Positions 5,509-59,358 of a stretch of DNA of 64,000 nucleotides are shown one piece after another. The position numbers and the translations under genes are program-made. The notes beneath the pieces were generated by a model that saw only the letters and a program-made list of their open reading frames with translations, searched no databases and was not told the DNA's origin. How positions within the stretch are numbered: position 1 is the stretch's first letter; every line of letters starts with the position of its first letter. This stretch comes from a phage: the NCBI GenBank assembly GCA_025611195.1, contig GCA_025611195.1_4718.2; one strand, 5' to 3'.

Positions 5509-6036
5509 TTATCCTGGATAAATAGTGATGATATCACCAATGACCGTTGTGGCACCGGCGTAAAGATGAGCCGGAGATACATCGTGTTGGTTTGTCACGG
5601 TAAGATCCAATCGACCACGCCAAACCATGGAGGTATTCGCGATGGGGATAGAAATCTTTTTGGATATATCGTCACGAAAATCAATAACAGTGGCAAGGGT
5701 AACTGTATCAAAGTCAACGTCGGGGTCAAAGACGAACCCGTATTGATCTGAAATCGCCCGAATAATCGCGTGTATAGTTGTTGTCTTAACAGACTCTAAA
5801 ACGATTTTTACTGGTATTCCTAGAAATGCCTTCGCAATATCGCGTCGAGCGTAAACGATAAAACTTTCACCGTTCCACCTTGTTCCTTCATTTGCCGTGA
5901 CGATCACTTTTGCCCTGTTAGCACCGGAACTTCCATCCAAGACTAATGTAAGATCGGAGCTGTTGAATACGCTACTGTTACGTCTGTTTATCAACGACGT
6001 CAGTTCGTCTTTCCATGGCGGGTAAAGTGAACACAT
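5509..6036 (-). CDS. short paralog carrying only the shared N-terminal module of the fibre-associated family
   Basis: MCSLYPPWKDELTSLINRRN...YARRDIAKAFLGIPVKIVL aligns to the N-termini of the 6194..7948, 11599..12429 and 48293..49744 products. Start moved to ATG 6036 (GGAGGAGGG upstream). Stop is 8 nt from the fibre start. Confidence 0.6.
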   Translation of the reverse strand: MCSLYPPWKDELTSLINRRNSSVFNSSDLTLVLDGSSGANRAKVIVTANEGTRWNGESFIVYARRDIAKAFLGIPVKIVLESVKTTTIHAIIRAISDQYGFVFDPDVDFDTVTLATVIDFRDDISKKISIPIANTSMVWRGRLDLTVTNQHDVSPAHLYAGATTVIGDIITIYPG

Positions 6037-6125
6037 ATGTGCACCCTCCTCCAACATAACCAGATTAAATATATATTTCTTAAACGTGGGACACGATTCG
6101 AGATAAACGTAAACGGCCTTAACGA

Positions 6126-6193: not shown

Positions 6194-7948
6194 TTATGCT
6201 GCTACATATCCAGGCCAACGTTCTCTTGGCCAGTTTGTTGCGCCCTGTCCAACGTTGTCCTTACCAGAAATTACGTTACTTACATCCCATCCACTCAGAT
6301 CCTGATTGAACGCGGTGTTTTCGCGCATCATGAGATCGATCTTACGTAGTGAACGGGTATTCCAGCCGGAAATGTCTTGGTTGAATGCTGTATTGTAGGC
6401 AAACATGTTAGACACGCTTTGTAATTTTGAGGTGTTCCAACCACTGATGTCGCTATTGAACGGCATGCTTGAGAACATGCTGCTCGCATCAACAAGGCTG
6501 TCGGTTTTCCAATTAACCAGTTTATCACCATCAAGTGCAGCGCTGCTGCTGAACATAAAACTCATGTCGTTAACTTTGGACACATCCCATTTATCCAACC
6601 CGTTACCCACGAACGCAGGACAGGACGAGAACATATAACTCATATTAGTAACCCGACTCACATTCCATTTACTGAAGTCGAGGTTAAGTTTCTGACACCC
6701 TAAGAAGGTTTTAGACATGTTGGTGATACGACTAACATCCCACTCTTGGATGTTGGGGTCGTTAAGTGTCGTTAAATAGTTGAACAACATCGCTAACGAC
6801 GTCCATTTCTCTGGAATCCGGTTTGGTACCGTACGAAGCGATGCGAGGTTGTTGGTTGACGGAGAGCAGAACATGCCGTTATCCCAATTTACGATCTCCG
6901 TAATTTTGGACCCTTTGATCGTCTGAGTGACGTTACCATCTTTCACCATACCTGTAGCGACGATGGTATATTCACCGGTGTCCGCATAATCGTGGGAGTA
7001 GGAGTTGTTGCTTGAGGTCTCCGTTACTTTATTCCCATCACCCCAATCGATATTGACCTTATCCCATCCACCTAGATAGAACTGTACTTTGCCTCCGGTG
7101 GCTTTTAGGATGTATTTACCCCCATTGTCTGTATAATAACAGACGACCATCGAACCGTACAGATTACCTATCTGCCAATCATCCTTTTGCGTTATTGCGA
7201 TTTGCGCCGCACCACGCTGTACGAAGAGTACCGTACGATTCTCGGCAGTCTGTAATGTGGTTATTGCCTGAGCCTTATCGTCCTCGCTAATTTCGCCAGA
7301 CACCACCAAAGCGCTTAACATCCTTTCGAAGTATTCGATCGGTAACTCGGTTCCAACAGACTTATCAACAGACGATACGGCAAGATCACCCAATGCTGCG
7401 GTGGTAGCCAACGCCAATGAACCCTTGGTCATATCTGTTTCTTGGATGTAATGCAGTCCTGTAAGCTGGTACGCTTGAATAATAGTAATCAGGTTCAGCG
7501 TATCGTTAACGACCTGTACCTGTAAATTCCCGGACCATACATAACTGCTTTCAGCAATCGGTAGTTCGACCGACTGAATACCCGATGTTTCAAAGGTGAT
7601 CTTCTTATTAAGATCGGTTTCCAGGAAATCAACCGCGAGGTCGAAATTCATGCCGTACTTTTCAGCGATGGAATCTACGATATTCTTGAAAGCAACATCT
7701 GTGCTTACGATAAAACGTAACGGAATTCCTGTAAACGCTTTAGCGATATCTCGACGAACATACGTAAGCGATTGTTCGAAGAAATAGGGACTGTTATCTC
7801 CAGGCTTGATGGTTACCTGACACGCTTCAGGATATTCAGCTGGGATGAACGATTCGAATTTAACATCAGATTCCTTCAACGAAAGCTTGTTATTTCGGTT
7901 CACTAACGCCAGAAGATCGGCTTTCCATCCGGGGTAAACTGTAGACAT
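6194..7948 (-). CDS. fibre-family protein: shared N-terminal module plus C-terminal DUF285/BspA-type repeats
   Basis: N-terminus MSTVYPGWKADLLALVNRNN... is paralogous to three other products. C-terminal half has repeated WDVS.V.NMS.MF..C.AFNQDISGW units typical of DUF285 (Mycoplasma/BspA-like) repeats. Start moved to ATG 7948 (GGAGTG upstream). Confidence 0.7.
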   Translation of the reverse strand: MSTVYPGWKADLLALVNRNNKLSLKESDVKFESFIPAEYPEACQVTIKPGDNSPYFFEQSLTYVRRDIAKAFTGIPLRFIVSTDVAFKNIVDSIAEKYGMNFDLAVDFLETDLNKKITFETSGIQSVELPIAESSYVWSGNLQVQVVNDTLNLITIIQAYQLTGLHYIQETDMTKGSLALATTAALGDLAVSSVDKSVGTELPIEYFERMLSALVVSGEISEDDKAQAITTLQTAENRTVLFVQRGAAQIAITQKDDWQIGNLYGSMVVCYYTDNGGKYILKATGGKVQFYLGGWDKVNIDWGDGNKVTETSSNNSYSHDYADTGEYTIVATGMVKDGNVTQTIKGSKITEIVNWDNGMFCSPSTNNLASLRTVPNRIPEKWTSLAMLFNYLTTLNDPNIQEWDVSRITNMSKTFLGCQKLNLDFSKWNVSRVTNMSYMFSSCPAFVGNGLDKWDVSKVNDMSFMFSSSAALDGDKLVNWKTDSLVDASSMFSSMPFNSDISGWNTSKLQSVSNMFAYNTAFNQDISGWNTRSLRKIDLMMRENTAFNQDLSGWDVSNVISGKDNVGQGATNWPRERWPGYVAA

Positions 7949-7966
7949 AAGCACTCCAAAGTTCAT

Positions 7967-11598: not shown

Positions 11599-12429
11599 TT
11601 AATCGTAACTGAAATAAAGTTTGCTGCTGACGCCGCTATCGGAATGAGGTTTTAATACCAGAACAGAGCTTCCGAACGACGGAAGTATCGGAACATTTAA
11701 ATCGTTTGCGTCGGCAACTTTTCCATTATAAACGACACTGGCTGTTGTGATAAGTTCCCAAGCTAAGGCATAACTCATTGAAATCAGTGAAGAGGCTAAA
11801 CGGAATGCGTTGTATCCTTCAGGAGAATCTCCAACCGACAATGAACGTATCGCATCTTGCGGTGGTAAATTTAGCTTGATGCCGTAGGTGCTAAACGTGT
11901 GGAAATCCCCTTGTTTACTATCTTCTGGATAATAAGAGGTTAGCGGTTCTCGCACCGTAATCAGTTCGCTAATATCGGTATTTACCGCTTTTCGCGCGAG
12001 GAATTGAAACGTACCGTACCACGATGCTGATGCATCAGAACGAATAGGAACAGTTATGGTTTTCTCGCCGCTTTCAAATTCAATCTGTGTCGCTAACATT
12101 GAAGAATCAAAGATCGTTAAATCGATCTTCAACCCATACTTCTTAAACAGCTGCGTTAAGCAGTCTGCTATAGTCGTCATATCAGCAACGACAATAAAAG
12201 GTTGGTGTTTGATAAAGAGCTTATTAATGTCTCGACGTTGAAGATAAACCTGTACCGGGTCTTCGATATAGTAAGTCGATTGTGATGTGGGGACTATAGA
12301 AAGGCGTAGCCGACCTGATGCACCATACCAGGCTGGCGTTAGCGTAATGTCTGACAGGGATAACGGATGCTGGAGATCGGTGTTTATTTTAGATAACACT
12401 TCCTCTTGCCATGATGCTTCAGGATACAT
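11599..12429 (-). CDS. fibre-family paralog (shared N-terminal module, distinct C-terminus)
   Basis: N-terminus MYPEASWQEEVLSKIN...YLQRRDINKLF aligns with the shared module. GAGG before ATG. Confidence 0.6.
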   Translation of the reverse strand: MYPEASWQEEVLSKINTDLQHPLSLSDITLTPAWYGASGRLRLSIVPTSQSTYYIEDPVQVYLQRRDINKLFIKHQPFIVVADMTTIADCLTQLFKKYGLKIDLTIFDSSMLATQIEFESGEKTITVPIRSDASASWYGTFQFLARKAVNTDISELITVREPLTSYYPEDSKQGDFHTFSTYGIKLNLPPQDAIRSLSVGDSPEGYNAFRLASSLISMSYALAWELITTASVVYNGKVADANDLNVPILPSFGSSVLVLKPHSDSGVSSKLYFSYD

Positions 12430-12488: not shown

Positions 12489-12543
12489 AAAAAAAAAAAA
12501 CAAAAATAGGAAAACGGTGCTCATCCTTTTAGGGATGAGCACC
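12489..12543 (-). terminator. rho-independent terminator (minus strand)
   Basis: Perfect 11-bp stem GGTGCTCATCC / GGATGAGCACC with 6-nt loop, followed on the minus strand by a long U-tract (plus-strand A-run at 12489..12514). Sits downstream of 12565..13143. Confidence 0.8.
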
Positions 12544-12564
12544 GCGTACCGTTATATCGAATGA

Positions 12565-15701: not shown

Positions 15702-15872
15702 TTACTTCTTCTGATAGAGCGATGATTCAAATTTTAGAAACACCGCTAACGCGAGTGCGAGTAATAACGCACGTACCCACATACCTCCTTGACAACTGTT
15801 GTACAACATAAAGACCAGAGCGATGCCGCCCATATGTAGGCGGCACTTATCGAACAGTGTTGGTTTATACAT
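15702..15872 (-). CDS. possible small membrane ORF (56 aa)
   Basis: Frame MYKPTLFDK...MWVRALLLALALAVFLKFESSLYQKK is hydrophobic and ends just before the holin-like Shine-Dalgarno. No clear Shine-Dalgarno of its own. Confidence 0.25.
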   Translation of the reverse strand: MYKPTLFDKCRLHMGGIALVFMLYNSCQGGMWVRALLLALALAVFLKFESSLYQKK

Positions 15873-24631: not shown

Positions 24632-27292
<2,661 letters not shown>

Positions 27293-44707: not shown

Positions 44708-45186
44708 TGATCTAATTGCTCCAGAAATGCGCGACCCGATTTACTTGCTTTTAAATGCTGTTCTGCGGAAGTAAGCAGAAGATCGGTTGGTGTGAATGCA
44801 GCGCTACCTTTCCACGCCGTTTTCAGTTTACCCTTTTCGATACTGAACTGAATCAGTTGTTGGGTACCGAAGTTAAGCGTGTTCGTCGCGGCGCTAAATA
44901 CACCACCCATCATGCTGTAACCAAAGACTTTCACATTTTCCGTGTAGAAGTCATTGTCGATCAATTTGTTCTGGAGCTCGAGTTGATCGGACGGCAGCAA
45001 TCCCCCATCAAAGACACTTAAAATACCAGCCAGGCGATACATACTCACCTTCCCTGCAACGCCCACCACGTAATTGCCATACACGGTTTCTTCCAGTTTA
45101 GCAACAACGGTGCGATCGTCGGAGGTTTTCATCGAAACCTCAATACCATCACCAACTTCTGTCAACGTTAAATCAACGATACTCAT
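44704..45186 (-). CDS. hypothetical protein
   Basis: 160-aa ORF; ATGA overlap with the phosphoesterase gene. Confidence 0.5.
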   Translation of the reverse strand: MSIVDLTLTEVGDGIEVSMKTSDDRTVVAKLEETVYGNYVVGVAGKVSMYRLAGILSVFDGGLLPSDQLELQNKLIDNDFYTENVKVFGYSMMGGVFSAATNTLNFGTQQLIQFSIEKGKLKTAWKGSAAFTPTDLLLTSAEQHLKASKSGRAFLEQLDQ

Positions 45187-45208
45187 TCATCATTCTCCGC
45201 TTTCATGT

Positions 45209-45895
45209 TTAACACATGATTTCACCATGTTTCTTTTCAACATACGTATAAACATCATCCAAATAAGCAATGAGTTTATCCCGATTTGCACAAAGCGATT
45301 TAATCACCGCAATCTCTTTCATATAAAGCTGCTGACCTAACGCCGGATAAGTAATCCAAGCATAGCCGTCAGGCGCAAATTTAGAAATAAGATAATCGGC
45401 GGTTTCCTGTAGTGCGAACTCTTTACTCATCTGACCGTAACGATGTTCGATTGCACGGATACCAAAACGTTCGCTATCCAGACGACCCATATCCGCCAAA
45501 CGAAGCACCTGAGAAGCAACCGAGCTACGTGGACCGGAGTATGAGGCGCGGTGTTCAGCAATAAGTACACGTATCTCCTCGATGTCTTCTGGTGTGAAAA
45601 TATGTTGCTCGTTACGAAGCAGGATAACCGATGCACGAATACCTCCGATAAGGTGGTGGTACGTTCTGTTTTCGTGGCATGCAATATCATGCATAAAAGC
45701 GGCAGTTAATAGACGACGACGTTCCGTGGGTCTGATGATGCCAACCACATCGGCAAGTTCATTTGCCAATTCGACAACAGCAAGCACGTGTTCTTCTTGA
45801 TGAGCAAGATCATTTTTACGAATATTATCAATTACTTCAGTGCGTGTTTCCTGAGATAAGAAATTTAGACAATCCAACGAATATAAAGATTTCAT
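45209..45895 (-). CDS. HD-domain phosphohydrolase
   Basis: H...HD...D pattern (HVLAV ... AAFMHDIA ... D). AAAGAGG before ATG. Preceded by the TATATTAC element. Confidence 0.6.
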   Translation of the reverse strand: MKSLYSLDCLNFLSQETRTEVIDNIRKNDLAHQEEHVLAVVELANELADVVGIIRPTERRRLLTAAFMHDIACHENRTYHHLIGGIRASVILLRNEQHIFTPEDIEEIRVLIAEHRASYSGPRSSVASQVLRLADMGRLDSERFGIRAIEHRYGQMSKEFALQETADYLISKFAPDGYAWITYPALGQQLYMKEIAVIKSLCANRDKLIAYLDDVYTYVEKKHGEIMC

Positions 45896-45944
45896 CGCAC
45901 GTACCTCTTTGAATCGGTAGATAGATTAATAGATATTGATTACT

Positions 45945-45968
45945 CACGTAAGTAATATAGCCGTGAAA
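45945..45968 (-). promoter_or_regulatory. candidate early-type promoter: TTTCACGGCTATATTAC (second copy)
   Basis: Exact 17-mer shared with 17352..17368, minus orientation, about 56 nt upstream of ATG 45895, followed by the imperfect palindrome TTACGTGAGTAA. Lies in the divergent intergenic region 45896..46111. Confidence 0.5.
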
Positions 45969-46048
45969 GGATTTGTGTTGGTCCGTTTCGATGCCCATCG
46001 TATTTTATGGATTGTCGAATGACGTCATTTTTAAGGGACATCCCCGAC

Positions 46049-46088
46049 CTCCTCCCCACACCTTTCCTGGGGAGGAGTTTTATCATAC
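46049..46088 (+). promoter_or_regulatory. stem-loop CTCCTCCCC/GGGGAGGAG followed by TTTTATCATAC, upstream of plus-strand helicase gene
   Basis: 9-bp stem at 46049..46077, then TTTTATCATAC at 46078..46088, 24 nt before ATG 46112. The same TTTTATCATAC occurs at 54712..54722. Confidence 0.45.
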
Positions 46089-46111
46089 TTTCTATTAATT
46101 CGAGCGCGATT

Positions 46112-48193
46112 ATGTTGGATAGAATCAATCGTTTAATGAACCGAATGACGGTTAAAAATCAGAGTAACAATACCGTGCATATCGGGGGTATCGATGCGTG
46201 GCGTCTTTCAGATGACATTCAGCGTATATGGGGTACCTCCCGATTTATGAAACACATGTTTCGTAATTTCTCTTCTAGTGGACTCAGTCTCCACAACTTT
46301 TACCTTCCCGATTTCGTTTATATTCTCGAAACGATCATCGAAGCAAAGAATACCCGTAGTAACAAACGCATGCTGAAACACCTTATCGAGATACTACTGC
46401 AGGAAACATGGTTGCAAAATACCACCATCGAGCAGCCTGCAATCCTCGATAAAGCACGCATGAACAAAATGCTAACGCTCTCTTTGTTCGATTATCAAGA
46501 TGAGTTCATCGACATCTATAACCGTAATGTACCTAAGTATCGACTGAAAGGATACGTGTGTGCGATGGGTGCTGGTGCTGGTAAAACGATCACAGCATTG
46601 GCATTAAGCGCCGCAATGAACGTCGATGTATTTGTGGTCTGCTGCCCTAAGAACACCATGCGTTCAGCATGGCAATCCGATGTAAACAAAGCCATCGTTG
46701 ATCCTGCAACAGAAACCGCGTTCTGGTCGGATACAATGCCACCATCACAGCTGCAGAAAAGCGATAAATACTATTTTTTACATTACGAATCGATGGGCTT
46801 ATTAAACGATGTGATGATCAAGCATAAACGCACAGCGAAGCGCGTTCTTATTGTTGTTGACGAAAGCCATAACTTCAACGACAAGAACAGCCAACGTTCC
46901 CAGCGACTGGTTGATCTTGTACAGACAATGCGTCAAACCATGAATGCGGATGTGCACGTCTTGTTTATGTCGGGTACGCCTGTTAAACAGATGGGTTCTG
47001 AGATGATCCCATGTTTAGGTTGTATCGATCCGATGTTCCAAGGACAGGTGGTCGATAGCTTCAAAGCAATTTACGGTTTAACCAGCAGCCGTGCTAACGA
47101 TATCCTCAGACATCGTCTTGGGTTCATGATGCATGTCGTACCTAAAGAGGCTTACCGTAAAACCCGTCCGGAAGTTCAGGACGTTTACGTGAAGCTCCCT
47201 AACGGTAGCGATTATACCATCTCGAGCATTCGTGACGACATGGCGATATTTGTACGCGATCGGGCGAAGTATTACAAGGATAACTGGGGACATTACCGAA
47301 AGATTTTTGATGATGCCTTGGACTACTATCGTAAGACTATTCGTACCGACGGAGAACGTAAAGAGCTATCTCGATACGAATCGATTGTTGCGCGTTTCCA
47401 GAAAGGTTACGATCCCGTCAGAGACAAAGAAGATGCGATGTTCTGCAACGCGTTTGAAAAACGTTCCATCATGCCAGTTCTTCCTTCTGATTTAAGGGTT
47501 GCTTTCAAAGACGCCAAGAGCGTCATCAAGTACGTTGGGTTGAAAATTCAGGGTGAAGCGTTGGCGCGTGTTCTGGGCGCAGCGCGCATTCGGTGTCATG
47601 TCGACATGGTGGAATACATCGACTTCGAAGAGTACATCAATAACGCCGAAGCCAAAGTGTTGATCTTCACATCGTACGTTCAGGTGGTTGAACGCGTCGA
47701 TAACATGCTTCGTGATGCGGGCTTCTTACCGGAACCCATTTACGGGAAGACCAACAAAAACATCAACCAAATACTTGCCCGTCTACGCGACGATCCTGAC
47801 AGCGGTCCCGCTATCGCAACATTTGATAGCTTAGCTGAAGGGGTTCCGATGCTGATGTGTAATGTGGGTCTTTTCCTGAACAACCCGTGGCGCTCATCCG
47901 ATGAAATCCAAGCCATCAGCCGTCTCGATCGTGTAGGGCAAACGCAACCTGTTCGGATTTATCGTTTCATGTTAGATACAGGAAGCGAAGGTAACGTTTC
48001 TACACGTAGCCACGAAATCATGGAGTTAAGTCGGCAGCTTGTTGAAGAAATCACGGGCGTCAAATACGTGGTGAACAAGCAAGATGATGTTAACTTGCAG
48101 GAAACGTTAGCGATGGAAGGATACGATCAATACGTTACCGTAAACACCTCGGAATACGATATTAAACCACGACCTGCGTTCTTGGAATGGTAA
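46112..48193 (+). CDS. SNF2-family helicase/ATPase
   Basis: Motif I MGAGAGKT, motif II VVDESHNF, motif III FMSGTPV, motif VI QAISRLDRVGQ. Start moved to ATG 46112. Confidence 0.8.
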   Translation: MLDRINRLMNRMTVKNQSNNTVHIGGIDAWRLSDDIQRIWGTSRFMKHMFRNFSSSGLSLHNFYLPDFVYILETIIEAKNTRSNKRMLKHLIEILLQETWLQNTTIEQPAILDKARMNKMLTLSLFDYQDEFIDIYNRNVPKYRLKGYVCAMGAGAGKTITALALSAAMNVDVFVVCCPKNTMRSAWQSDVNKAIVDPATETAFWSDTMPPSQLQKSDKYYFLHYESMGLLNDVMIKHKRTAKRVLIVVDESHNFNDKNSQRSQRLVDLVQTMRQTMNADVHVLFMSGTPVKQMGSEMIPCLGCIDPMFQGQVVDSFKAIYGLTSSRANDILRHRLGFMMHVVPKEAYRKTRPEVQDVYVKLPNGSDYTISSIRDDMAIFVRDRAKYYKDNWGHYRKIFDDALDYYRKTIRTDGERKELSRYESIVARFQKGYDPVRDKEDAMFCNAFEKRSIMPVLPSDLRVAFKDAKSVIKYVGLKIQGEALARVLGAARIRCHVDMVEYIDFEEYINNAEAKVLIFTSYVQVVERVDNMLRDAGFLPEPIYGKTNKNINQILARLRDDPDSGPAIATFDSLAEGVPMLMCNVGLFLNNPWRSSDEIQAISRLDRVGQTQPVRIYRFMLDTGSEGNVSTRSHEIMELSRQLVEEITGVKYVVNKQDDVNLQETLAMEGYDQYVTVNTSEYDIKPRPAFLEW

Positions 48194-48196
48194 TTA

Positions 48197-48233
48197 AGAA
48201 GCTCTGCCTGATGTCAGGCAGAGCTTTATGCTG
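48197..48233 (+). terminator. rho-independent terminator after the helicase gene, followed by TTTATGCTG
   Basis: At least 10-bp stem GCTCTGCCTG / CAGGCAGAGC with a 4-nt loop, directly after stop TAA (48191..48193), followed by TTTATGCTGCG. Confidence 0.75.
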
Positions 48234-48292
48234 CGTTCGCTGCAAAATCGTATGACGTATATGCGTTGTACTTATTAAATAGGACTGAATAC

Positions 48293-49744
48293 ATGAAACT
48301 CAAACAAAGCTGGAAAGACGAACTTCTTGCGTTAGTAAATAGCAAAAACAGTTTACAGCTGACATTAGACGACGTAAAATTTGAACTAACTGAACCGGTA
48401 AGCGAAGTGCCCGGAACGGTTACTGTCACGATCAAACCGAACGATGATAGCCGTTACTTTAACGAGCAGTCTCTGACCTACGTTCGTCGAGACATCGCTA
48501 AAAACTTCACCGGGATCCCGTTACGGGTTATCGTTAAAAATGATACCGCCGTAAAGGATATCATCAACACGATCGCTGAACGTTACGGATTGGTATTTGA
48601 CACAACCGTCGACTTCCTCGAATCCGAGCTGAATAAACAAATTACGTTCGCAGACACCGGTATTAAAGACATCACGGTTCCGGTTGCAAACACGTCTTAT
48701 GTTTGGGCTGGTAATCTTCAGTTCAACATTGCTAACGATACGTTAAGCTTGATTACGATCATCAAGAAAACCGATCTTACGAATCTGGTTTATCTGGATG
48801 GTGTTGAAGCTGATACAACGGGATCGTTACTATTAGCAACGACCTCGGTTATCGACGAAAACGGAAATACCGAAACAACTGAAGGTGTCCTTGACGCCGC
48901 GCACTTCCAGAATGTCCTGAACGTCATGGTTCGTTATGGTGATATTACCAACGAACAAATGCAACAAGCAATGCAGACAATTAACCAAAGCGAAGACGTT
49001 CGTAGAGTAGAGGTGAGATCATACGGTGACGCCGAATTACTGGTAACCACCAAGAAAGATTGGGCTATCGGTAGCCTTAAGGGTGCTATGGCTGTTGGAC
49101 GCGCTTCACCTAAACCGATCCAATACGTTCTTAAAACAAAAGGCGGCAGCATTATATTATCATTAAATGGTTGGACAAATGTTTCCATCGATTGGGGTGA
49201 TGGGAATAAGACGACGGAGGACTCAGTCGATAATGAATATCGGCACAATTATACGGACACTACAGAACGTACGATCGTCGCTACGGGTACCCCTACCAAC
49301 GTTGAAGATACAGAGGTACAGCAAAGCTTCACCGGTGGTAACATTACAGAAATCGTTGACTGGAACAACGGATTACCTAAGGCCCCATCATTACTTGCGG
49401 CGAACAGTTTAACTAAGGTTCCTAATTATATCCCGGCATACTGGACATCGTTAGAAGGTATGTTTACGAGATGTAGCGTTATTAACGACGTGAACATCAC
49501 CAAATGGAACACCCGCAACATTACTTCAATGAAGGACCTCTTCTACGGTTGCGCTGCGTTCAACCAACCGATCGGTTCGTGGGATGTTTCGTCTGTTAAG
49601 AATATCGACAATATGTTGTCTGGATGCTTCGCGTTCAATCAGGATCTGAGTGGTTGGACATTCCCGGCAGGCACTTCACACATTAACTACGACGCCATGA
49701 CCGCCGTGTGGAGTACTGAACACAAACCACACTTCACCGAGTAA
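48293..49744 (+). CDS. fibre-family paralog on the plus strand: shared N-terminal module plus DUF285/BspA-type repeats
   Basis: MKLKQSWKDELLALVNSKN...YVRRDIAKNFTGIPLRVIV aligns with the 6194..7948 product. C-terminus has the same TSMKDLFYGCAAFNQPIGSWDVSSV units. Start moved to ATG 48293 (AGGA upstream). Confidence 0.7.
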   Translation: MKLKQSWKDELLALVNSKNSLQLTLDDVKFELTEPVSEVPGTVTVTIKPNDDSRYFNEQSLTYVRRDIAKNFTGIPLRVIVKNDTAVKDIINTIAERYGLVFDTTVDFLESELNKQITFADTGIKDITVPVANTSYVWAGNLQFNIANDTLSLITIIKKTDLTNLVYLDGVEADTTGSLLLATTSVIDENGNTETTEGVLDAAHFQNVLNVMVRYGDITNEQMQQAMQTINQSEDVRRVEVRSYGDAELLVTTKKDWAIGSLKGAMAVGRASPKPIQYVLKTKGGSIILSLNGWTNVSIDWGDGNKTTEDSVDNEYRHNYTDTTERTIVATGTPTNVEDTEVQQSFTGGNITEIVDWNNGLPKAPSLLAANSLTKVPNYIPAYWTSLEGMFTRCSVINDVNITKWNTRNITSMKDLFYGCAAFNQPIGSWDVSSVKNIDNMLSGCFAFNQDLSGWTFPAGTSHINYDAMTAVWSTEHKPHFTE

Positions 49745-49762
49745 AAAAAATAGTTAGCATAT

Positions 49763-49795
49763 CTTCCTCCCTACCCATAACGGGCGGGGAGGAAG
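49763..49795. terminator. bidirectional stem-loop at convergent gene junction
   Basis: CTTCCTCCC / GGGAGGAAG 9-bp stem with 15-nt loop between the plus gene (stop 49744, then an A-run) and the minus gene (stop 49813). Flanked by AGCATAT and TTTATG. Confidence 0.6.
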
Positions 49796-49812
49796 GTTTA
49801 TGTGGCTATGAC

Positions 49813-50151
49813 TTAGAACCAGAGTTCTTTCATGAGGTAGGCTTCCATATCGTAGATAAGCCACTCGTCAGGAATTTCTAAAGGATCGTCTTCGGTTAAG
49901 GTCAGCATGTGCAGGGCGAACGCACGCTTAATATCGTTCAGCAGTTTCTCGTCGTCGTAACCTTCAGGTAACTTACGGTCTACCAGTTGGGTTTGTTTAT
50001 AGACAGCACAGAACGCTTCTGGGCTGTGTTTGTCCATCGGAAATTGTTCAGCAGCCTGAACCATCGTCAACGTCCAGCTTACAACATTGTAGCGCTCACC
50101 GTTAATTTCACTGAACTGATCATCGATTAAACAGATTTGTTGTACGTTCAT
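49813..50151 (-). CDS. hypothetical acidic protein
   Basis: 112-aa ORF; ATGA overlap. Confidence 0.5.
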   Translation of the reverse strand: MNVQQICLIDDQFSEINGERYNVVSWTLTMVQAAEQFPMDKHSPEAFCAVYKQTQLVDRKLPEGYDDEKLLNDIKRAFALHMLTLTEDDPLEIPDEWLIYDMEAYLMKELWF

Positions 50152-51041
50152 TCATTTTCTCCATTCTTATCTTGGTCGCAATCACACTCTTCGACGTCTT
50201 TCTTACTTAAACGCAAGACACCAAGTGCGGCATGCTTGAGTTCTTGCAACGCGCTTTTCAGCTGACCTTCTTCATCGAAATCAAAATACTTCTCGTTGTA
50301 GCTTAATGCTGGAATCATATTTACGAGAGGCTCGATGGCAGGCATCAACATTTCAATAACAACCTTAGGATCAACAAAGCGTTCAAACCCTTCAGGAAGT
50401 TTGCTCGCCACAACCTTATCGTTCTTGATGAAGAATTTGTTCTTGAATAAATCGTCAAGAATAGCGTTCTCTTCATCCGTACGTTTTGCGTGAGGACGAT
50501 CGATCATCTGCACAAACACATCACTCAACGCTTCAGGCAGGGTCGGATTTTCACGAAGAGAAGTTCCAGCCGGAATTTCAATATCGATCTTTGCCCACTC
50601 AACAACCTGGTGATCTCGTGTGTAGATAACATCGACTTCCCACGCCAGGCCGTCCGGACTTTCCACAGTGTAACGTGTTTTCGCTTGACCTTCCGGAGCC
50701 ATACGCTCAATGGCATCAAACATCTCGACTGGGATTTCGACTTCGCTTTCCGTTGCATCGCCTGGACCACGATACACCTTCGTGGTCATGATGTATTTCG
50801 GTTCTTCGTTATCGATCTGTATCGCACGTGCGCGTACCTGACCTTTCACACCACCAACGGCCGTGTTATCAAACAACCATTGATGTTGCACCATATGTTC
50901 GATTTTTGATGCGACTTGACGAAGACGTTCAACACCGTCCTCAGCCAGTTTACCAAAGAAGACCAGCTCACGTTCCTGCTGTGTCTCACCACTTAACATC
51001 ATTAAATTGGCGATTTGTTTCACGCCTCTTACTTTTGACAT
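50148..51041 (-). CDS. hypothetical protein
   Basis: 297-aa ORF. Confidence 0.55.
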   Translation of the reverse strand: MSKVRGVKQIANLMMLSGETQQERELVFFGKLAEDGVERLRQVASKIEHMVQHQWLFDNTAVGGVKGQVRARAIQIDNEEPKYIMTTKVYRGPGDATESEVEIPVEMFDAIERMAPEGQAKTRYTVESPDGLAWEVDVIYTRDHQVVEWAKIDIEIPAGTSLRENPTLPEALSDVFVQMIDRPHAKRTDEENAILDDLFKNKFFIKNDKVVASKLPEGFERFVDPKVVIEMLMPAIEPLVNMIPALSYNEKYFDFDEEGQLKSALQELKHAALGVLRLSKKDVEECDCDQDKNGENE

Positions 51042-51110: not shown

Positions 51111-52685
51111 TTACAATTCAAAATCTTCATCGATAACGCGCTGGGTAAGCACTTTGTCGCTGAAGAACTCCACCTTGCGCTGATGGTATTTACGATGCGC
51201 TTCGATAGAAGTACATACCAGATACCAGAAGGTTGGCGTCATTCCTTCAAACTTCCCTTTCAGCTGACGCAGTCGCCCCAACACCTGAATGTTACCGGTT
51301 CGTGACCCCATCGCTAACGTCATGAACGCCATCACCAAGTCAGGAAGGTCGATACCCGTACCTGCCGATTTCACCGTCGTAACGCTAATATCGTTATCCA
51401 ACAAGACCATGAAATCTTCTTCAGCCGTATAAGGACCGATCTCTAACTCAGGAATACGTTCACTAAGGTAATGCGACAACGACTTACACATATCGACGGT
51501 TGCACAATACACCAGCATCTTCATACCTTCCTGATACTGGTTCATGAAACCTTTGATGATAACCGTATAGATGAAGTTAAAATACGCGAGTTTGAGTTGC
51601 TTGTTCTTCATGATAGACTGTTCGAATATCGTGTGAGAATAAGAACCCCCAAACCCTTTATATCTGACTTTATCTGTACTGCGTAGTCGATACGTCACGG
51701 CATTTACCGCAATGTATTTCTTGTATTCGCCTTTCGCATAACGGGCTTCTTTCGGATACATCAAATACAACATCCGCTCGATGAACGGATCATCGGACAC
51801 CGCCGTTGCTGACAGATAGATGATTTCCGGAATACTAGCGTAACACTTGACCTTAAACAAGAAATGCAATGCTTCATGGCACTCGTCATGAATCAGAAGG
51901 CCTATGCCGGTCTTTTCCCAAAACTCAGCGGGATGGAAGGCATATGGCGCAACGCAGTTATTCTTCTCGTAGTCCGCAATATAACGTTGGAACATGTTCA
52001 AGGAGAACAATGCGATTTTGAAGTCGAGTTCGCCTTGTTCAACCAAGGTTTGAAACTCCAACATACTGTAACGAGGAATGTCAGGATGCGGTGGATCCTC
52101 CTTAGCGTTCCCGCGTATCTCGATAACATCCCCTGGTTCCATCCCGAAGAAGTTCAGTAGTGAGCTTCGCCAACCTGGCATGTATCTCGGCGACAGAATG
52201 ATACCCGTCCGCACACCGCGTCGGAAGGTAATCTCCTGCGACATGGCCGTTTTTCCCGACCCCGTTTGAGCGGTGTTTAGGCTCATTCTGAAGGGGGTAT
52301 CCTTACCCCCGTCCATGTACTCCAACCATTCTTGCTGATCTTCACGCCATGGGAACTTCCATTTCTTTACGAACTCCACTTCTTTACCTGGTGCCGGATC
52401 GTGGTAAACGATTTCCAACCACTCTTTTCGTATCCCTCGGGAAAAGATAAAATCCAAAAACGATTTCAACTGTTCGCGGAGTAAGTATACCTCACTATAA
52501 TCGCTTCTTGCCGCGGCATACGTGTTTATGGTATCGGTAACCATTCTCCGTGTACGAGGGTCGCGCCGTTTCCTCAGATGCAAACAACGGTCTCGAAGGT
52601 AATGGCCGATAAGATGGGCAAATCGAAGTCCGTATCCGCTCAGCCTCATGCCGTGCGAGAAGACATCGATACGAGCTAACTTCAT
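51111..52685 (-). CDS. SF2 DExH-box helicase
   Basis: Motif I QTGSGKT, motif II LLIHDECH, motif III YLSATAV, motif VI-like QVLGRLRQ. ATGA overlap with the upstream gene. Confidence 0.75.
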   Translation of the reverse strand: MKLARIDVFSHGMRLSGYGLRFAHLIGHYLRDRCLHLRKRRDPRTRRMVTDTINTYAAARSDYSEVYLLREQLKSFLDFIFSRGIRKEWLEIVYHDPAPGKEVEFVKKWKFPWREDQQEWLEYMDGGKDTPFRMSLNTAQTGSGKTAMSQEITFRRGVRTGIILSPRYMPGWRSSLLNFFGMEPGDVIEIRGNAKEDPPHPDIPRYSMLEFQTLVEQGELDFKIALFSLNMFQRYIADYEKNNCVAPYAFHPAEFWEKTGIGLLIHDECHEALHFLFKVKCYASIPEIIYLSATAVSDDPFIERMLYLMYPKEARYAKGEYKKYIAVNAVTYRLRSTDKVRYKGFGGSYSHTIFEQSIMKNKQLKLAYFNFIYTVIIKGFMNQYQEGMKMLVYCATVDMCKSLSHYLSERIPELEIGPYTAEEDFMVLLDNDISVTTVKSAGTGIDLPDLVMAFMTLAMGSRTGNIQVLGRLRQLKGKFEGMTPTFWYLVCTSIEAHRKYHQRKVEFFSDKVLTQRVIDEDFEL

Positions 52686-54688
52686 AACGTGAATACATCC
52701 TCCGGTTTAGGTTCTTTGCGCGGTAAAAGCATGTAGTCGATCGGATGATCCGGCTTCATGGTTGGGATATAACTGTTCGGGTTTTGGAACGCATCCAGTT
52801 GCTCTTGGTGAGCGAACTTCATACTCAAGGAGCGCATGTTCATGTTCTTCTTGAAGGTGCTGAAGTATCGTGTTGTTCCCTGTTTCGGCATGCGATAATC
52901 TTTCGTGTGTGGCGAACGAATCATGCTGGCGTAGAGAATAACATCGAGATGCGAAAGGTTCATTCGCAGACGCTGTGCGCACAAGCGATGCCAATAGTAC
53001 AGCACGTTTGCAACTTCTTCCGGTGTTGCTTCGTCTTCCGAGAGGAACCCGGCACTGAAAGAACCTTTCCCGAATTTGAACTCACGTTCGATTTCTTTTG
53101 CGTATTCCATCATGTTTTTGTGGATTAACGGCATCTGGAATAACGTACGTGAATTGTCCCAATGTTTCAAGTCGAAAATCACAATCCCGTCAGACGTCAC
53201 TTCCCAGCTATGGCGTTTAAGATAACGGATAAACGCTTTACTCGGTACAACAGGACGTCCGCAGAAATCGAAATTGACTTTGAGCTTACGATAGCTTTCA
53301 TCTTTCCTGTCGTAAATCTCCATATCGCAAAGCGTCATGTTAAACAGACGCTGTGGTATCAGCGAACTGATTTCTTCCGCTTCGGCTACATCGTACAACA
53401 TGTTCGCAAGACCTAACTTCATCTTAATCAGCACGTGTTTACCTTTCAGCTCACGTGCGAGTTTGATGTCGTTCATGTTCTGGCTGTAACGAAGGATATG
53501 TTGATATTCCGGTGGGATTGGTGCTGTAGAGACCGTTGACGAACCGTCGTGGTGTTTGGTAGAAAGAATGTTCTGCGTTACCTGTTGCGAGCAGGTACGC
53601 GCTGCGCCATCGCCGACATTATCGGTTAATGCGAAGTTATGACTTAATTCACCATAACACGTTGTGCATACCCCAGCAGGATCGGGATGATGACAATAGT
53701 TAACGGAGCGCATACGCACTGTGGTGCCGATCAATTCTTTCATATGTGGTTGTATCGCTACCAACGAACCGTCATCACGAATAATGAATCGGCCGTGGAA
53801 GCCACGCAGGTCGGTCTCATCACGGATTGGCATCGGGATGGTCTCTCTACTACCACAATCACCAGGATGTAGTCGTTGCACAACCGCTGTCGCTATCTGA
53901 AGTTCACGACCGAAATATTCAGACTTTTTAATCTGCTCTTTGTTGAACAGCAACGATTTCGCCGCAGAACGACTTTCTTTCAAGCTGTCGGGAAGAGAGA
54001 TCAAACCTGACGCGTACGACCGCATTACTGGATCACGGAATATCTCGGAGTTAATATCGGTCAAGAATCCACGCATCCCAATACACTGCAGCACCTGCCC
54101 AATCGAAACGTGTTCGGTTCTTACCGCACGTGCAATAGGGTTTGCATGTAATGTTTTATCGGTGCTCAGTACCTTTGTCAGTTTCTTGTATGCGCTTTCG
54201 ATACCTTCGCGGGTGGGTTCCGCTTCAGCGATGATTTTCTTAACTTCGGGGTGTACGGTAATCTGATAAAAATCATCCGCACAAATAGTTGTTACGTATT
54301 CCTCCAACGCATACGTAAAGAAGTTATACACGTTGTTAAACATATCGAACAGTGCTTTCCAGAGAACCTCACGATTCTCTTGTGGGTAAGCATACATGCA
54401 TTGACGATACGCTGCGCTTTGCAACGCTACCGATGAACCCGCTGTAAACTTACGTTTATCAACCAGGTTCTCTTTTGTCAATGGTGTCTCAGGATACATG
54501 CGATGTACAGACCAGTGCATGTAACTAAAGAAAATGCGTCGCGCACGTAATTCATGAACGCCATCGTCCATCTCGATATATACACGGTCATTAGGCTGTG
54601 CCCACTCGAATACCTCATCAACCGGCCAGTGCATAAGCTCGCGTGCCCTCACACGACGTTTCGTGGTGGTCGTCTGTGTTGTAGTCAT
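52682..54688 (-). CDS. RNA polymerase beta'-like subunit, C-terminal fragment (multisubunit phage RNAP)
   Basis: Colinear similarity to bacterial beta' region F through the trigger loop: CIGMRGFLTDINSEIF (beta' AGMRGLMAKPDGSIIE), bridge-helix-like SRSAAKSLL, VRMRSVNYCHHPDPAGVCTTCYGEL (beta' [22 protein letters not shown]). No NADFDGD motif, so the N-terminal part is encoded elsewhere. Confidence 0.7.
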   Translation of the reverse strand: MTTTQTTTTKRRVRARELMHWPVDEVFEWAQPNDRVYIEMDDGVHELRARRIFFSYMHWSVHRMYPETPLTKENLVDKRKFTAGSSVALQSAAYRQCMYAYPQENREVLWKALFDMFNNVYNFFTYALEEYVTTICADDFYQITVHPEVKKIIAEAEPTREGIESAYKKLTKVLSTDKTLHANPIARAVRTEHVSIGQVLQCIGMRGFLTDINSEIFRDPVMRSYASGLISLPDSLKESRSAAKSLLFNKEQIKKSEYFGRELQIATAVVQRLHPGDCGSRETIPMPIRDETDLRGFHGRFIIRDDGSLVAIQPHMKELIGTTVRMRSVNYCHHPDPAGVCTTCYGELSHNFALTDNVGDGAARTCSQQVTQNILSTKHHDGSSTVSTAPIPPEYQHILRYSQNMNDIKLARELKGKHVLIKMKLGLANMLYDVAEAEEISSLIPQRLFNMTLCDMEIYDRKDESYRKLKVNFDFCGRPVVPSKAFIRYLKRHSWEVTSDGIVIFDLKHWDNSRTLFQMPLIHKNMMEYAKEIEREFKFGKGSFSAGFLSEDEATPEEVANVLYYWHRLCAQRLRMNLSHLDVILYASMIRSPHTKDYRMPKQGTTRYFSTFKKNMNMRSLSMKFAHQEQLDAFQNPNSYIPTMKPDHPIDYMLLPRKEPKPEDVFTL

Positions 54689-54809
54689 TATTGCTTTCCG
54701 ATTTAAATGGTTTTATCATACGGTTTACCAAATCCGTTGGACTTTACTATCGTTGTGATAGCATCGGGAATCCCTTCCCTTAGGTTATGTAGGTGTTAAT
54801 ATATCTCCA

Positions 54810-59318: not shown

Positions 59319-59358
59319 CCCTCCCACAGCGTAAAGCGTAGGGAGGGCATTTATGCCG
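59319..59358. terminator. stem-loop CCCTCCC/GGGAGGG at convergent junction, followed on the plus strand by ATTTATGCCG
   Basis: 7-bp stem 59319..59347 with 15-nt loop between the plus gene stop (59313) and the minus gene stop (59379). Confidence 0.5.

Follow-up and report, generated by a model that had tools for sequence, protein, structure and literature searches.

The window analysed here, a stretch of 64,000 nt, shares 93.8% nucleotide identity with Escherichia phage Goslar of the Chimalliviridae (Goslar gp159-163 region). Nearly all of its large ORFs lie on the minus strand, outside one island with two plus-strand ORFs, 46112-48193 (693 aa) and 48293-49744 (483 aa), which have the same starts as Goslar gp160 and gp161. 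The original prediction of two plus-strand genes forming an island in a minus-strand segment was thus exact in its coordinates. On the left, the island is separated by a divergent gap of 216 bp (45896-46111) from a minus-strand HD-hydrolase cluster, whose nearest gene starts at 45895. That this gap holds an early-type motif on the minus strand (15-mer at 45966-45952) and a hairpin on the plus strand (46049-46077) is also confirmed. On the right lies a minus-strand nvRNAP beta' / SF2-helicase operon, with an ortholog of the RAY 'nvRNAP beta' subunit 2'. Genes, order, strands and intergenic elements are all alike in the Goslar gp160-gp161 locus (NC_048170 142891-146585), whose record already lists two of the hairpins described below, T1 and T2, as terminators. 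Judged by these comparisons, the locus is the ordinary, previously annotated Goslar-type gp160 plus gp161 of a nucleus-forming jumbo phage.

The first gene (46112..48193, plus strand) encodes a predicted SNF2-like SF2 ATPase/helicase, the ortholog of Goslar gp160 (98.6% amino acid identity), phiKZ gp203 and RAY gp131. Its earlier assignment to the SNF2 family agrees with Pfam matches above cut-off (ResIII, SNF2-rel_dom, Helicase_C and DEAD), and the matches in a PDB sequence search are all Snf2-family remodellers; the Goslar record for gp160 cites COG0553 HepA. With tblastn the protein is found in 205 jumbo-phage records, near full length in 202 of them, and motifs I, II, III and VI are unchanged across 10 genera. 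The RAY ortholog is labelled 'virion-associated SWI/SNF family helicase' in its record, and RAY gp131 colocalises with the capsid according to the literature. In phiKZ, gp203 is packaged in the head, proteolytically processed and co-pellets with DNA, and it tolerates transposon insertions and is dispensable in the laboratory. Both proteins resemble the island helicase over its full length (32-34% identity) with identical catalytic motifs, and their genes, as here, are inverted among oppositely oriented ones, while the genes downstream of them (phiKZ gp202 and gp201, RAY gp130) are not homologous to the second gene of the island. By homology, the island helicase is an ortholog of the capsid-packaged Chimalliviridae helicase and would presumably reside in the virion of the present phage too; packaging and processing are described in the literature for the relatives.

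Poxvirus NPH-I (D11) and bacterial RapA/HepA are SNF2-family ATPases that work with multisubunit RNA polymerase. A parallel may be drawn, as the ATPase is of the same type and the relatives of the island helicase share the virion with a multisubunit virion RNA polymerase. However, the PDB sequence matches are to chromatin remodellers generally and not to RapA specifically, phiKZ tolerates the loss of gp203 in the laboratory, and we know of no interaction between the helicase and the vRNAP.

The second gene (48293..49744, plus strand), the counterpart of Goslar gp161 (91.7% amino acid identity), encodes a protein with a DUF7941 N-domain, a beta-rich middle and DUF285/BspA-like repeats. Pfam supports both DUF7941 (1.6e-24) and the originally proposed DUF285 repeats (5.3e-22), the matching PHROGs 1037 and 2935 are both 'virion structural protein', and the BFVD fold matches are an 870-aa Goslar tail protein and chimallivirus virion structural proteins. 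For the N-domain, no solved structure matches, and the AlphaFold model has low confidence there. The view of this gene as a fibre-family paralog proved correct, given the relatives in the tail-fibre cluster of the window, all on the minus strand. The full-length one (6194..7966, 590 aa, DUF7941 plus DUF285 by Pfam) is 47.6% identical to the island protein over 445 aa; it is common among other Goslar-like contigs but has no counterpart in Goslar itself, so that in this pair of phages it is an extra gene of the present one. A DUF7941-only paralog of 182 aa (5509..6057) adjoins a P1 S-like tail fibre gene, and another DUF7941 paralog of 276 aa (11599..12429) adjoins the gene of a 1198-aa tail protein. 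Across 10 Goslar-like genomes, residues 1-180 are 95-99% conserved versus 71-87% for residues 181-483. Domains, paralogs and the pattern of conserved N-terminus and variable C-terminus all fit a fast-evolving, tail-type virion protein.

Is the island an insertion, as the original prediction suggested might be seen from synteny and GC skew? A horizontally acquired, moron-like cassette in a minus-strand gene block would indeed explain the opposite orientation, the island's own terminators and its own promoter-like motifs; the second gene is limited at this position to Goslar-like phages, and in phiKZ some units made of one gene on the opposite strand have been interpreted as separate acquisitions. 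Yet in 9 of 10 sampled chimalliviruses, each of a different genus and ranging from Pseudomonas to Vibrio phages, the helicase lies in an opposite-strand island of 1-3 genes (Goslar, RAY, Proteus phage 10, Eowyn, phiKZ, SA002, Vibrio TSL-2019, Noxifer and FBKp24); only FLC9 has no such short island. The inversion is therefore most simply regarded as ancestral. The GC content of the island (0.43-0.48) is typical of the window, its GC skew merely mirrors the coding strand, and its hairpins are of the phage's own type, found window-wide. As for the second gene, its nearest relatives are paralogs within the same genome, which argues for duplication and not for import. In our opinion, acquisition of the whole island from outside is very improbable, and for the helicase the comparative evidence largely refutes it.

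The same survey bears on the claim that the pairing of the two genes is unexpected, with which we disagree. The helicase belongs to a family-wide, capsid-packaged type and its partner to a virion structural (tail) family; in other genera, too, the inverted helicase gene has co-oriented genes for virion structural proteins behind it, namely in phiKZ (gp201, gp202) and Noxifer, and in Eowyn, whose passenger is a DUF7941 protein. Across other genera the slot after the helicase is empty or holds non-homologous genes, and the single-gene islands of Proteus phage 10, SA002, TSL-2019 and FBKp24 are closed by a hairpin of the same kind as that ending the present island. It had further been proposed that finding the two genes at unrelated loci in related phages would speak against the island. 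This was seen in part, for the second gene in a more distant relative, where a DUF7941+DUF285 gene has no helicase beside it and sits with another DUF7941 tail-type protein; there, DUF7941 is also found fused to a TIM-barrel tail-type protein. Helicase and second gene occur together in all 10 full-length Goslar-like loci examined, an eleventh locus ending inside the helicase gene.

Co-occurrence of this kind could point to a functional two-component module, for example an injected anti-restriction or anti-defence pair like the Dar system of P1. Some helicase orthologs are labelled 'DarB-like antirestriction', P1 DarB (a methyltransferase-helicase) likewise has a helicase core and is packaged in the capsid, and phiKZ gp203 is packaged, DNA-bound and dispensable under laboratory conditions, as an accessory counter-defence factor would be. 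However, by Pfam the island helicase lacks a DarB-type methyltransferase domain, and at 693 aa its match to the 1881-position PHROG 62 profile spans only the helicase part. The partner, moreover, is not conserved beside the helicase in other genera, its family is that of the tail cluster and its divergence resembles that of receptor-binding proteins, and the two genes are separated by a strong terminator and by a conserved candidate promoter block of the second gene's own. We consider such a module unlikely, if slightly less so than a wholesale insertion.

Three putative terminator hairpins accompany the island. T1 (46049..46088, plus strand), upstream of the helicase gene, consists of CTCCTCCCCA, 9 nt and TGGGGAGGAG followed by TTTTATCATAC; its perfect 10-bp hairpin (46049-46077) folds at -19.1 kcal/mol (z = -4.2), and in the Goslar-like genome L018 its closing pair is G-C in place of A-T, with both sides changed. 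T2 (48199..48230, plus strand) follows the helicase gene with a 12-bp hairpin (48199-48226) and TATGC; a fold of -24 kcal/mol (z = -4.9) bears out the strong terminator predicted between the two genes, and compensatory changes in L024 and in L022/L023 preserve its stem, as does a G-U pair in L021. T3 (49763..49795), where the island and the minus-strand nvRNAP/SF2-helicase unit converge, is stable on both strands (z = -5.5 plus, -5.9 minus), as expected of the proposed bidirectional hairpin; read on the plus strand its tail is GTTTATG, and on the minus strand ATATGC...T8. Compared with the nine other Goslar-like genomes covering T1, its loop is reverse-complemented, and this holds against Goslar too. 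Likewise, the T2 loop is ATGT here and ACAT in Goslar, again exact reverse complements, and the Goslar T2 tail is TTCATGC versus TTTATGC in the present phage.

The terminator motif of phiKZ, BCCYCCCC..GGGRRGG-TTAT, has been mapped experimentally, and T1 fits it. T1 and T3 share with the terminators of phiKZ and 201phi2-1 a C/T-rich stem, a G-rich return arm and the TTAT tail, while T2 shares the tail but differs in its stem sequence AGCTCTGCCTG. A scan of the window for perfect stems of at least 7 with TTAT within 3 nt found 11 sites, compared with a mean of 0.5 and a maximum of 2 in 30 dinucleotide shuffles. The motif is oriented with the coding strand at most sites in the window and at every plus-strand island site; of the two exceptions, 59319-59347, a palindrome, scores in either direction, and 15824-15845 is a plus-strand site within a minus-strand region. 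The island hairpins are thus putative phiKZ-type intrinsic terminators (CCYCCC…GGGRGG + TTAT).

As for promoters, the early-type motif TCACGGCTATATTAC (45952..45966, minus strand) precedes the start of the HD-hydrolase gene by 57 nt, and we take it to resemble the phiKZ early promoter core. It is invariant in 10 Goslar-like genomes; the exact 15-mer recurs at 17366-17352 (-) and a 2-mismatch copy at 63999-63985 (-), all three copies being intergenic and upstream of minus-strand genes. Only this extended 15-mer is remarkable; the 8-mer TATATTAC by itself is not enriched (3 found versus 2.4 expected).

On the plus strand, TATG is the late-promoter core of the phiKZ nvRNAP, with G as +1 (PMC4666361). 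A candidate helicase promoter and leader start is the non-coding block 45997..46046, with TATG at 46006-46009 and the palindrome TGACGTCA; save for one 1-nt difference in a T/A run, all 10 Goslar-like genomes share it unchanged, in contrast to the variable 16 nt on its left. An in-frame ATG at 46007 is not conserved as a start, 1-nt indels breaking its frame in L021 and L022. As a point against this candidate, in other genera TATGA is found 30-50 nt before the helicase start, where Goslar-like phages have TATCA. The candidate for the second gene, ATCGTATGACG (48247..48257, plus strand; TATG at 48251-48254), lies 39 nt upstream of it and likewise shows no change in any of the 10 Goslar-like genomes, amid varying sequence. 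Intergenic enrichment is modest (6 of 30 GTATGA copies fall in intergenic DNA, which is 4% of the sequence), and TATG is short. We infer that each island gene has its own TATG-type nvRNAP promoter.

Since T1 follows the putative start site of the helicase transcript and precedes the gene itself, it may serve as a leader terminator. Both phiKZ and 201phi2-1 are documented to have such terminators, with short RNAs, and in its position upstream of a gene T1 resembles the 42 5'-UTR terminators reported for six Pseudomonas phages, phiKZ among them. Alternatively, T1 might be an insulator that keeps stray plus-strand (antisense) transcription out of the helicase gene, or it might be a stem-loop at the 5' end of a minus-strand transcript directed toward the HD-hydrolase gene, with its start at the TATG within GTATGATAAAAC (46088-46077). 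The minus-strand GTATG beside T1 is indeed kept in 9 of 10 Goslar-like genomes, an identical copy of the 12-mer GTATGATAAAAC precedes the start of the nvRNAP beta' gene by 21 nt, and the flipped loop implies that the loop sequence is not strand-specific. On the other hand, the minus-strand TATG is lost in L021, the 12-mer shows no enrichment when 2 mismatches are tolerated (8 found versus 7.9 expected), the T-run/TTAT tail of the family's terminators is on the plus strand only (the minus-strand tail is GTCGGGGA), and the invariant plus-strand TATG block is just upstream. Taken together, these two alternatives seem to us the weaker option, though one of appreciable weight.

Our best explanation, which we hold to be likely as a whole, is that an arrangement conserved throughout the Chimalliviridae appears here in its Goslar-lineage form. 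An SNF2-like ATPase, presumably packed into the capsid, is encoded opposite to the surrounding early and replication genes, and the Goslar lineage would have added beside it a duplicate from the DUF7941 family of the tail cluster. The N-terminus of this second protein would be a conserved virion-attachment module, and its rapidly diverging BspA-like repeat domain probably the surface or receptor-contact part. The two proteins would not act together; their genes would be neighbours for the reason that each encodes a part of the virion produced once the early phase is over. Transcription would start from nvRNAP-type promoters at 46006-46009 and 48251-48254 and end at T2 for the helicase and at T3 for the second gene, with T1 limiting or gating helicase expression like the 5'-UTR terminators of phiKZ and 201phi2-1. 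The strand switch, T1 and T3 would separate the island from the early-promoter-driven HD-hydrolase cluster and from the nvRNAP beta' / SF2-helicase operon; in phiKZ, nvRNAP subunits are early gene products. With 175 of 249 genes detected already at 5 min in RNA-seq of Goslar, early expression is conceivable. Nevertheless, protein function and the promoter-like motifs make two non-early units of virion proteins, insulated from the flanking early operons, the most likely reading. Given T2 and the separately conserved TATG block between the genes, there are probably two transcription units and not one.

Over its full length, the stretch 45000-50500 is 93.8% identical in nucleotides to Escherichia phage vB_EcoM_Goslar, a nucleus-forming jumbo phage of the Chimalliviridae. 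Its two plus-strand open reading frames at 46112-48193 and 48293-49744 are the counterparts of Goslar gp160 and gp161, with agreeing start codons, and the Goslar record names their products 'DEAD/DEAH box helicase' (with a HepA/COG0553 note) and 'BspA family leucine-rich repeat surface protein'. Putative terminators are already entered in that record at the positions of the hairpins that we call T1 and T2. Almost all other sizeable reading frames of the 64-kb window lie on the minus strand. Everything listed in the original prediction is indeed there (the two plus-strand frames, the 216-bp divergent gap 45896-46111, the minus-strand motif and three hairpins); the observation is real and its annotation-level claims are correct. 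We disagree with the view that the pairing of an SNF2 ATPase with a DUF285-repeat protein is unexpected; the locus is an ordinary one in this phage family. The Goslar annotation already contains the genes, their order and two of the three hairpins, virion association of the helicase family is on record, and hairpins of this type have been mapped as terminators of the phiKZ family. As a discovery, the island carries low weight.

The helicase gene (46112-48193) scores above the Pfam cut-offs for ResIII, SNF2-rel_dom (31.9 bits against 24.9), Helicase_C (30.6 against 23.5) and DEAD, with ResIII outscoring SNF2-rel_dom in the N lobe. All 44 of its 44 PDB sequence matches are Snf2-family proteins, e.g. 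SWR1, ISW1, SMARCA5 and SsoRad54-like. When the protein is aligned with orthologs from nine other genera (32-38% identity), G155, G157, K158 and T159 of motif I (GxGKT, Walker A) and D250, E251 and H253 of motif II (DExH) are invariant across the ten genera, as are S287 and T289 of motif III (SGTP; G288 nearly so) and Q600, R604 and R607 of motif VI (QxxxRxxRxGQ; G609 and Q610 nearly so). This conservation points to purifying selection on the predicted enzyme and, together with the Pfam and PDB matches, bears out the original call of an SNF2-type ATPase; the product is a predicted SF2 ATPase of the SNF2 (Swi2/Snf2) family.

A tblastn search finds the helicase in 205 jumbo-phage records, 202 of which cover at least 80% of the query, and the ortholog in Erwinia phage RAY is labelled 'virion-associated SWI/SNF family helicase'. 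By full-length orthology and conserved genomic position, the gene is the predicted ortholog of the capsid-packaged phiKZ gp203 and RAY gp131. It has been reported that phiKZ gp203 undergoes proteolytic processing, is packaged in the head and co-pellets with genomic DNA, and that transposon insertions in it are tolerated. RAY gp131-GFP co-localises with capsids, and its authors liken it to phiKZ gp203 and propose a role in DNA organisation or early transcription. Processing and presence in the virion head are features of these relatives, taken from the literature, and would be predictions for the protein of the window. Such a packaged SNF2 ATPase is conserved in all genera with its active site intact; phiKZ can nevertheless do without it under laboratory conditions.

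An anti-restriction protein like P1 DarB was also considered as an identity for the helicase. There is a match to PHROG 62, limited to profile positions 473-1135 of 1881. In DarB, however, an N-terminal DNA methyltransferase is joined to the helicase, whereas a Pfam scan of the window helicase returns no methyltransferase family. Given the lack of this domain and the partial PHROG 62 coverage, we rejected the DarB-like identity.

Two peculiarities of the orthologs may be mentioned here. The last residue is aromatic in seven of the ten (...EW, ...SW, ...GW, ...RF; alignment A5), the exceptions being FLC9, FBKp24 and the Vibrio phage. In Vibrio phage 2 TSL-2019 (L010, 4962-7724) an insertion of about 230 amino acids lies exactly within the Walker A motif of the helicase, GSGK|...THN|T, and tblastn matches in two pieces also occur in Vibrio, Photobacterium and PA1C-like Pseudomonas phages. 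The P-loop insertion resembles an intein; since a Pfam search of it shows no intein family, this stays a guess from its position.

How the helicase is placed in other phages bears directly on the question whether the island is an insertion, for which flanking synteny and GC skew had been proposed as checks. We surveyed the annotated neighbourhood of the helicase ortholog in ten genera. In nine of them (Goslar, RAY, Proteus phage 10, Eowyn, phiKZ, SA002, Vibrio phage 2 TSL-2019, Noxifer and FBKp24) the helicase runs against the direction of its immediate neighbours on either side, in an island of one to three genes; the sole exception, Burkholderia phage FLC9, has it in a longer co-oriented run. 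The genes that ride with the helicase vary, and four phages have none. In phiKZ these passengers are gp202 and gp201, both 'virion structural protein'; in Noxifer a 121-aa protein and a 'virion structural protein'; in RAY gp130; and in Eowyn a 145-aa protein and a 172-aa DUF7941 protein. Only the last of these shows detectable homology to the second gene of the Goslar type: hhalign found none between DUF7941 and phiKZ gp201, phiKZ gp202, the 145-aa protein of Eowyn or RAY gp130.

The GC content of the island (0.43-0.48) is ordinary within the window (0.41-0.52), and the GC skew merely switches sign with the coding strand. A horizontally acquired island or moron was therefore rejected, its composition being typical and the helicase island family-wide; the sequence gives no sign of foreign origin. 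The lineage-specific part is the second gene only, and the nearest relatives of that gene are paralogs in the same genome. As the helicase is inverted in nine of the ten genera, the inverted unit is ancestral, and the passenger alone lineage-specific. The backwards-facing helicase unit can thus be seen as an ancestral landmark of nucleus-forming jumbo phages, beside which a variable slot tends to gather genes of virion proteins.

The second gene (48293-49744) encodes a DUF7941 N-domain at residues 4-213 (87.3 bits against a Pfam cut-off of 27) and DUF285/BspA-like repeats at residues 385-456 (78.2 bits against 25), so that the DUF285-repeat call is upheld. The N-domain belongs to PHROG 1037 and 2935, of the category 'virion structural protein'. 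The gene's assignment as a paralog of a fibre family is also right: a full-length paralog with both domains (590 aa, 47.6% identity) is encoded on the minus strand at 6194-7966, N-domain paralogs lie at 5509-6057 and 11599-12429, and the three are interleaved with a P1 S-like tail fibre gene and the gene of a 1198-aa tail protein. DUF7941 is modular, the same N-domain being joined to different C-terminal domains in proteins coded among tail genes. A more distant relative (35% identity) has its DUF7941+DUF285 gene away from any helicase gene, three genes downstream of an 870-aa DUF7941 protein with an NCTSP TIM-barrel.

The AlphaFold model of the second protein is confident for residues 180-483 only, the N-domain being poorly predicted. 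A Foldseek search of the PDB with it returned no solved structure at E <= 0.001, and BFVD alone was informative: the Goslar 870-aa 'tail protein' ranks first there, with virion structural proteins of RAY, Eowyn, Phabio and EL behind it. Across Goslar-like genomes the helicase is 92-99% identical and the second protein 61-92%; per-column conservation in the latter is 95-99% over the first 180 residues and 71-87% over the remainder. On domain content and paralogy we place it, as a prediction, in the DUF7941 family of virion structural proteins of the tail cluster. A conserved attachment module with a diverging distal part would be the pattern of a tail fibre or receptor-binding protein, and the passenger of the Goslar lineage resembles an additional tail protein that evolves fast and could have a bearing on host range.

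Gene content differs elsewhere as well. The frame at 6194-7966 (6206-7952) has no counterpart in Goslar, where there is only a 205-bp gap, although other Goslar-like contigs commonly carry it, at about 584 aa. Conversely, the window lacks Goslar gp120 (708 bp) near 24955. Contigs of the Goslar-like type, 235-247 kb long (P0002, P0005, P0019, P0023, P0027, P0052, P0056), turn up in public assemblies labelled Salmonella enterica, Shigella flexneri, Shigella sonnei, Enterobacter hormaechei and E. coli. This suggests either that lytic Goslar-like jumbo phages are often carried in cultures of bacterial isolates or that their enterobacterial host range is wide.

To the right of the island, the gene at 52682-54688 is an ortholog of the RAY 'putative nvRNAP beta' subunit 2' (nvRNAP, non-virion RNA polymerase) and of a phiKZ RNA polymerase subunit. 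An SF2 helicase gene (51111-52685) adjoins it, just as a non-virion SF2 helicase stands beside an nvRNAP subunit gene in RAY. Because nvRNAP subunits are early products in phiKZ, the island seems to lie between an early-type operon on the right and a cluster driven by an early promoter on the left. In an RNA-seq time course of Goslar, 175 of 249 genes were detected at 5 min, and structural genes appeared later, in a ChmA-dependent manner (bioRxiv 10.1101/2023.09.20.558163). The position of the island fits a strand switch and terminators that separate temporal classes. In our opinion, the neighbourhood of helicase and second gene probably reflects common timing and a common destination, the virion, rather than a helicase-repeat-protein system. 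In the same SF2 helicase/nvRNAP region, an IMG/VR genome of 237,533 bp (L015, 12112-12833) is about 700 bp longer than the window at about 52.2 kb, which may be a mobile element or an intron-like insertion.

The three hairpins are T1 (46049-46077, plus strand), a perfect 10-bp hairpin followed by TTTTATCATAC; T2 (48199-48226, plus strand), a 12-bp hairpin after the helicase stop codon; and T3 (49763-49795, bidirectional), where the convergent units meet. Each folds far more stably than its shuffled controls (z -4.2 to -5.9). Hairpins whose 5' arm is rich in C/T and whose 3' arm is rich in G, with a TTAT(G) tail, occur downstream of genes throughout the window. Under strict conditions (perfect stem of at least 7 bp, TTAT within 3 nt) a scan finds 11 sites, T1, T2 and T3 among them, whereas dinucleotide shuffles give 0.5 on average and never more than 2; three of the five plus-strand sites are in the island, and a fourth is 3' of a small plus-strand gene, the counterpart of Goslar gp172. 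ONT-cappable-seq has defined a conserved intrinsic terminator of phiKZ, 5'-BCCYCCCCHWWDGGGRRGGBYTTATKYYGT-3', which was recovered in 201phi2-1. T1 and T3 fit this consensus, whereas the stem sequence of T2 differs.

For comparison we used ten to eleven Goslar-like genomes from IMG/VR and metagenomes. A scan of IMG/VR with the exact T1 pattern gave no match, because in the relatives the tail is longer by one T and the loop is turned the other way; they were then retrieved through the helicase protein. In L018 the closing A-T of T1 is G-C, with pairing kept; in T2 a C-G is replaced by T-A in L024, a T-A by C-G in L022 and L023, and L021 has a G-U pair. Such two-sided changes in T1 and T2 suggest that selection maintains the hairpin structure. 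T3-like hairpins also end the single-gene helicase islands of Proteus phage 10, SA002, Vibrio phage 2 TSL-2019 and FBKp24. Motif match, enrichment and compensatory changes together make these structured elements ordinary predicted terminators of the phage, T3 being bidirectional. A search of Rfam over 45500-50200 returned no credible match, and a tRNA search found none in the window.

T2 and T3 each follow a gene on its coding strand. T1 precedes the first gene of the plus strand and has none ahead of it on that strand, a position known for the 5'-UTR terminators of phiKZ. About 50 nt directly 5' of T1 (45997-46046, plus strand) are invariant while adjacent bases vary, and they include a TATG at 46006-46009. 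The late phiKZ promoters used by nvRNAP require a TATG core, and transcription starts at its G. GTATGA is about five-fold enriched in the intergenic DNA of the window; in several other genera (T/G)TATGA stands 30-50 nt ahead of the helicase gene, a position at which Goslar-like phages have TATCA. Should the helicase transcript start at 46009, T1 would be within its leader, and 5'-UTR terminators that yield short RNAs and minority read-through are documented in phiKZ and 201phi2-1. Alternatively, T1 may be an insulator against antisense transcription, or the 5' stem-loop of a minus-strand transcript from a TATG. We rejected a 35-codon in-frame extension of the helicase from the ATG at 46007 as coding sequence, since L021 and L022 have indels that disrupt its frame. 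The sequence ATCGTATGACG (48247-48257), which lies between T2 and the second gene, is unchanged in 10 of 10 genomes, whereas its surroundings vary. The exact 12-mer GTATGATAAAAC, which includes the TATG core, occurs twice on the minus strand, at 46077-46088 where it abuts T1 and at 54710-54721, 21 nt upstream of the start of the nvRNAP beta' gene at 54688; it is not enriched when mismatches are allowed.

On the minus strand of the divergent gap, the 15-mer TCACGGCTATATTAC (45966-45952) has an exact copy at 17366-17352 and a copy with two mismatches at 63999-63985. A minus-strand start codon follows each of the three at a distance of 57-96 nt. The 15-mer is invariant in all Goslar-like genomes. 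It seems to resemble the core of the phiKZ early promoter, and is a plausible candidate for an early promoter of the virion RNA polymerase (vRNAP) in front of the HD-hydrolase cluster. The 8-mer TATATTAC was dropped as an enriched early motif (3 found, 2.4 expected), only the 15-mer being notable, and a full-text literature search for the 8-mer returned nothing relevant. Scans for sigma-70 promoters and generic terminators gave counts at or below chance, as expected for a phage that does not use the host RNA polymerase.

The loops of some of these hairpins are flipped between genomes. The T1 loop is CACCTTTCC in the window and its exact reverse complement GGAAAGGTG in Goslar, eight other Goslar-like genomes being as Goslar; the flip is unique to the window among ten genomes covering T1. 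The T2 loop is ATGT, and ACAT in Goslar only, among seven genomes with the standard T2 stem. A hairpin at 12515-12544 has TTTTAG where Goslar has CTAAAAA, that is, flipped with a 1-nt change in the run. The stems of all three are unchanged. Among 13 perfect-stem hairpins set against Goslar, 3 have flipped loops, 5 are identical, 4 differ in other ways and 1 lacks a Goslar counterpart. As the T1 and T2 flips fall in different lineages, they seem to be independent inversions of whole hairpins.

One may speculate further, although we consider what follows unlikely. The SNF2 ATPase would be an injected cofactor of vRNAP, a phage counterpart of poxvirus NPH-I or bacterial RapA, and would remodel or clear the densely packed genome inside the early infection vesicle. 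T1, as a leader terminator, would gate synthesis of the helicase and also release a small RNA of about 70 nt. Separately, whole-hairpin inversion would proceed at a high rate in the lineage, with 3 of about 12 terminator palindromes flipped between 93%-identical genomes; if true, the inversions would point to rearrangement driven by cruciforms or template switching in Goslar-like genomes. In phiKZ, the gap between gp203 and gp204 (7769-8118 of L007) is a 353-nt divergent region upstream of the helicase gene, with several long hairpins and a very stable raw fold of -97 kcal/mol.
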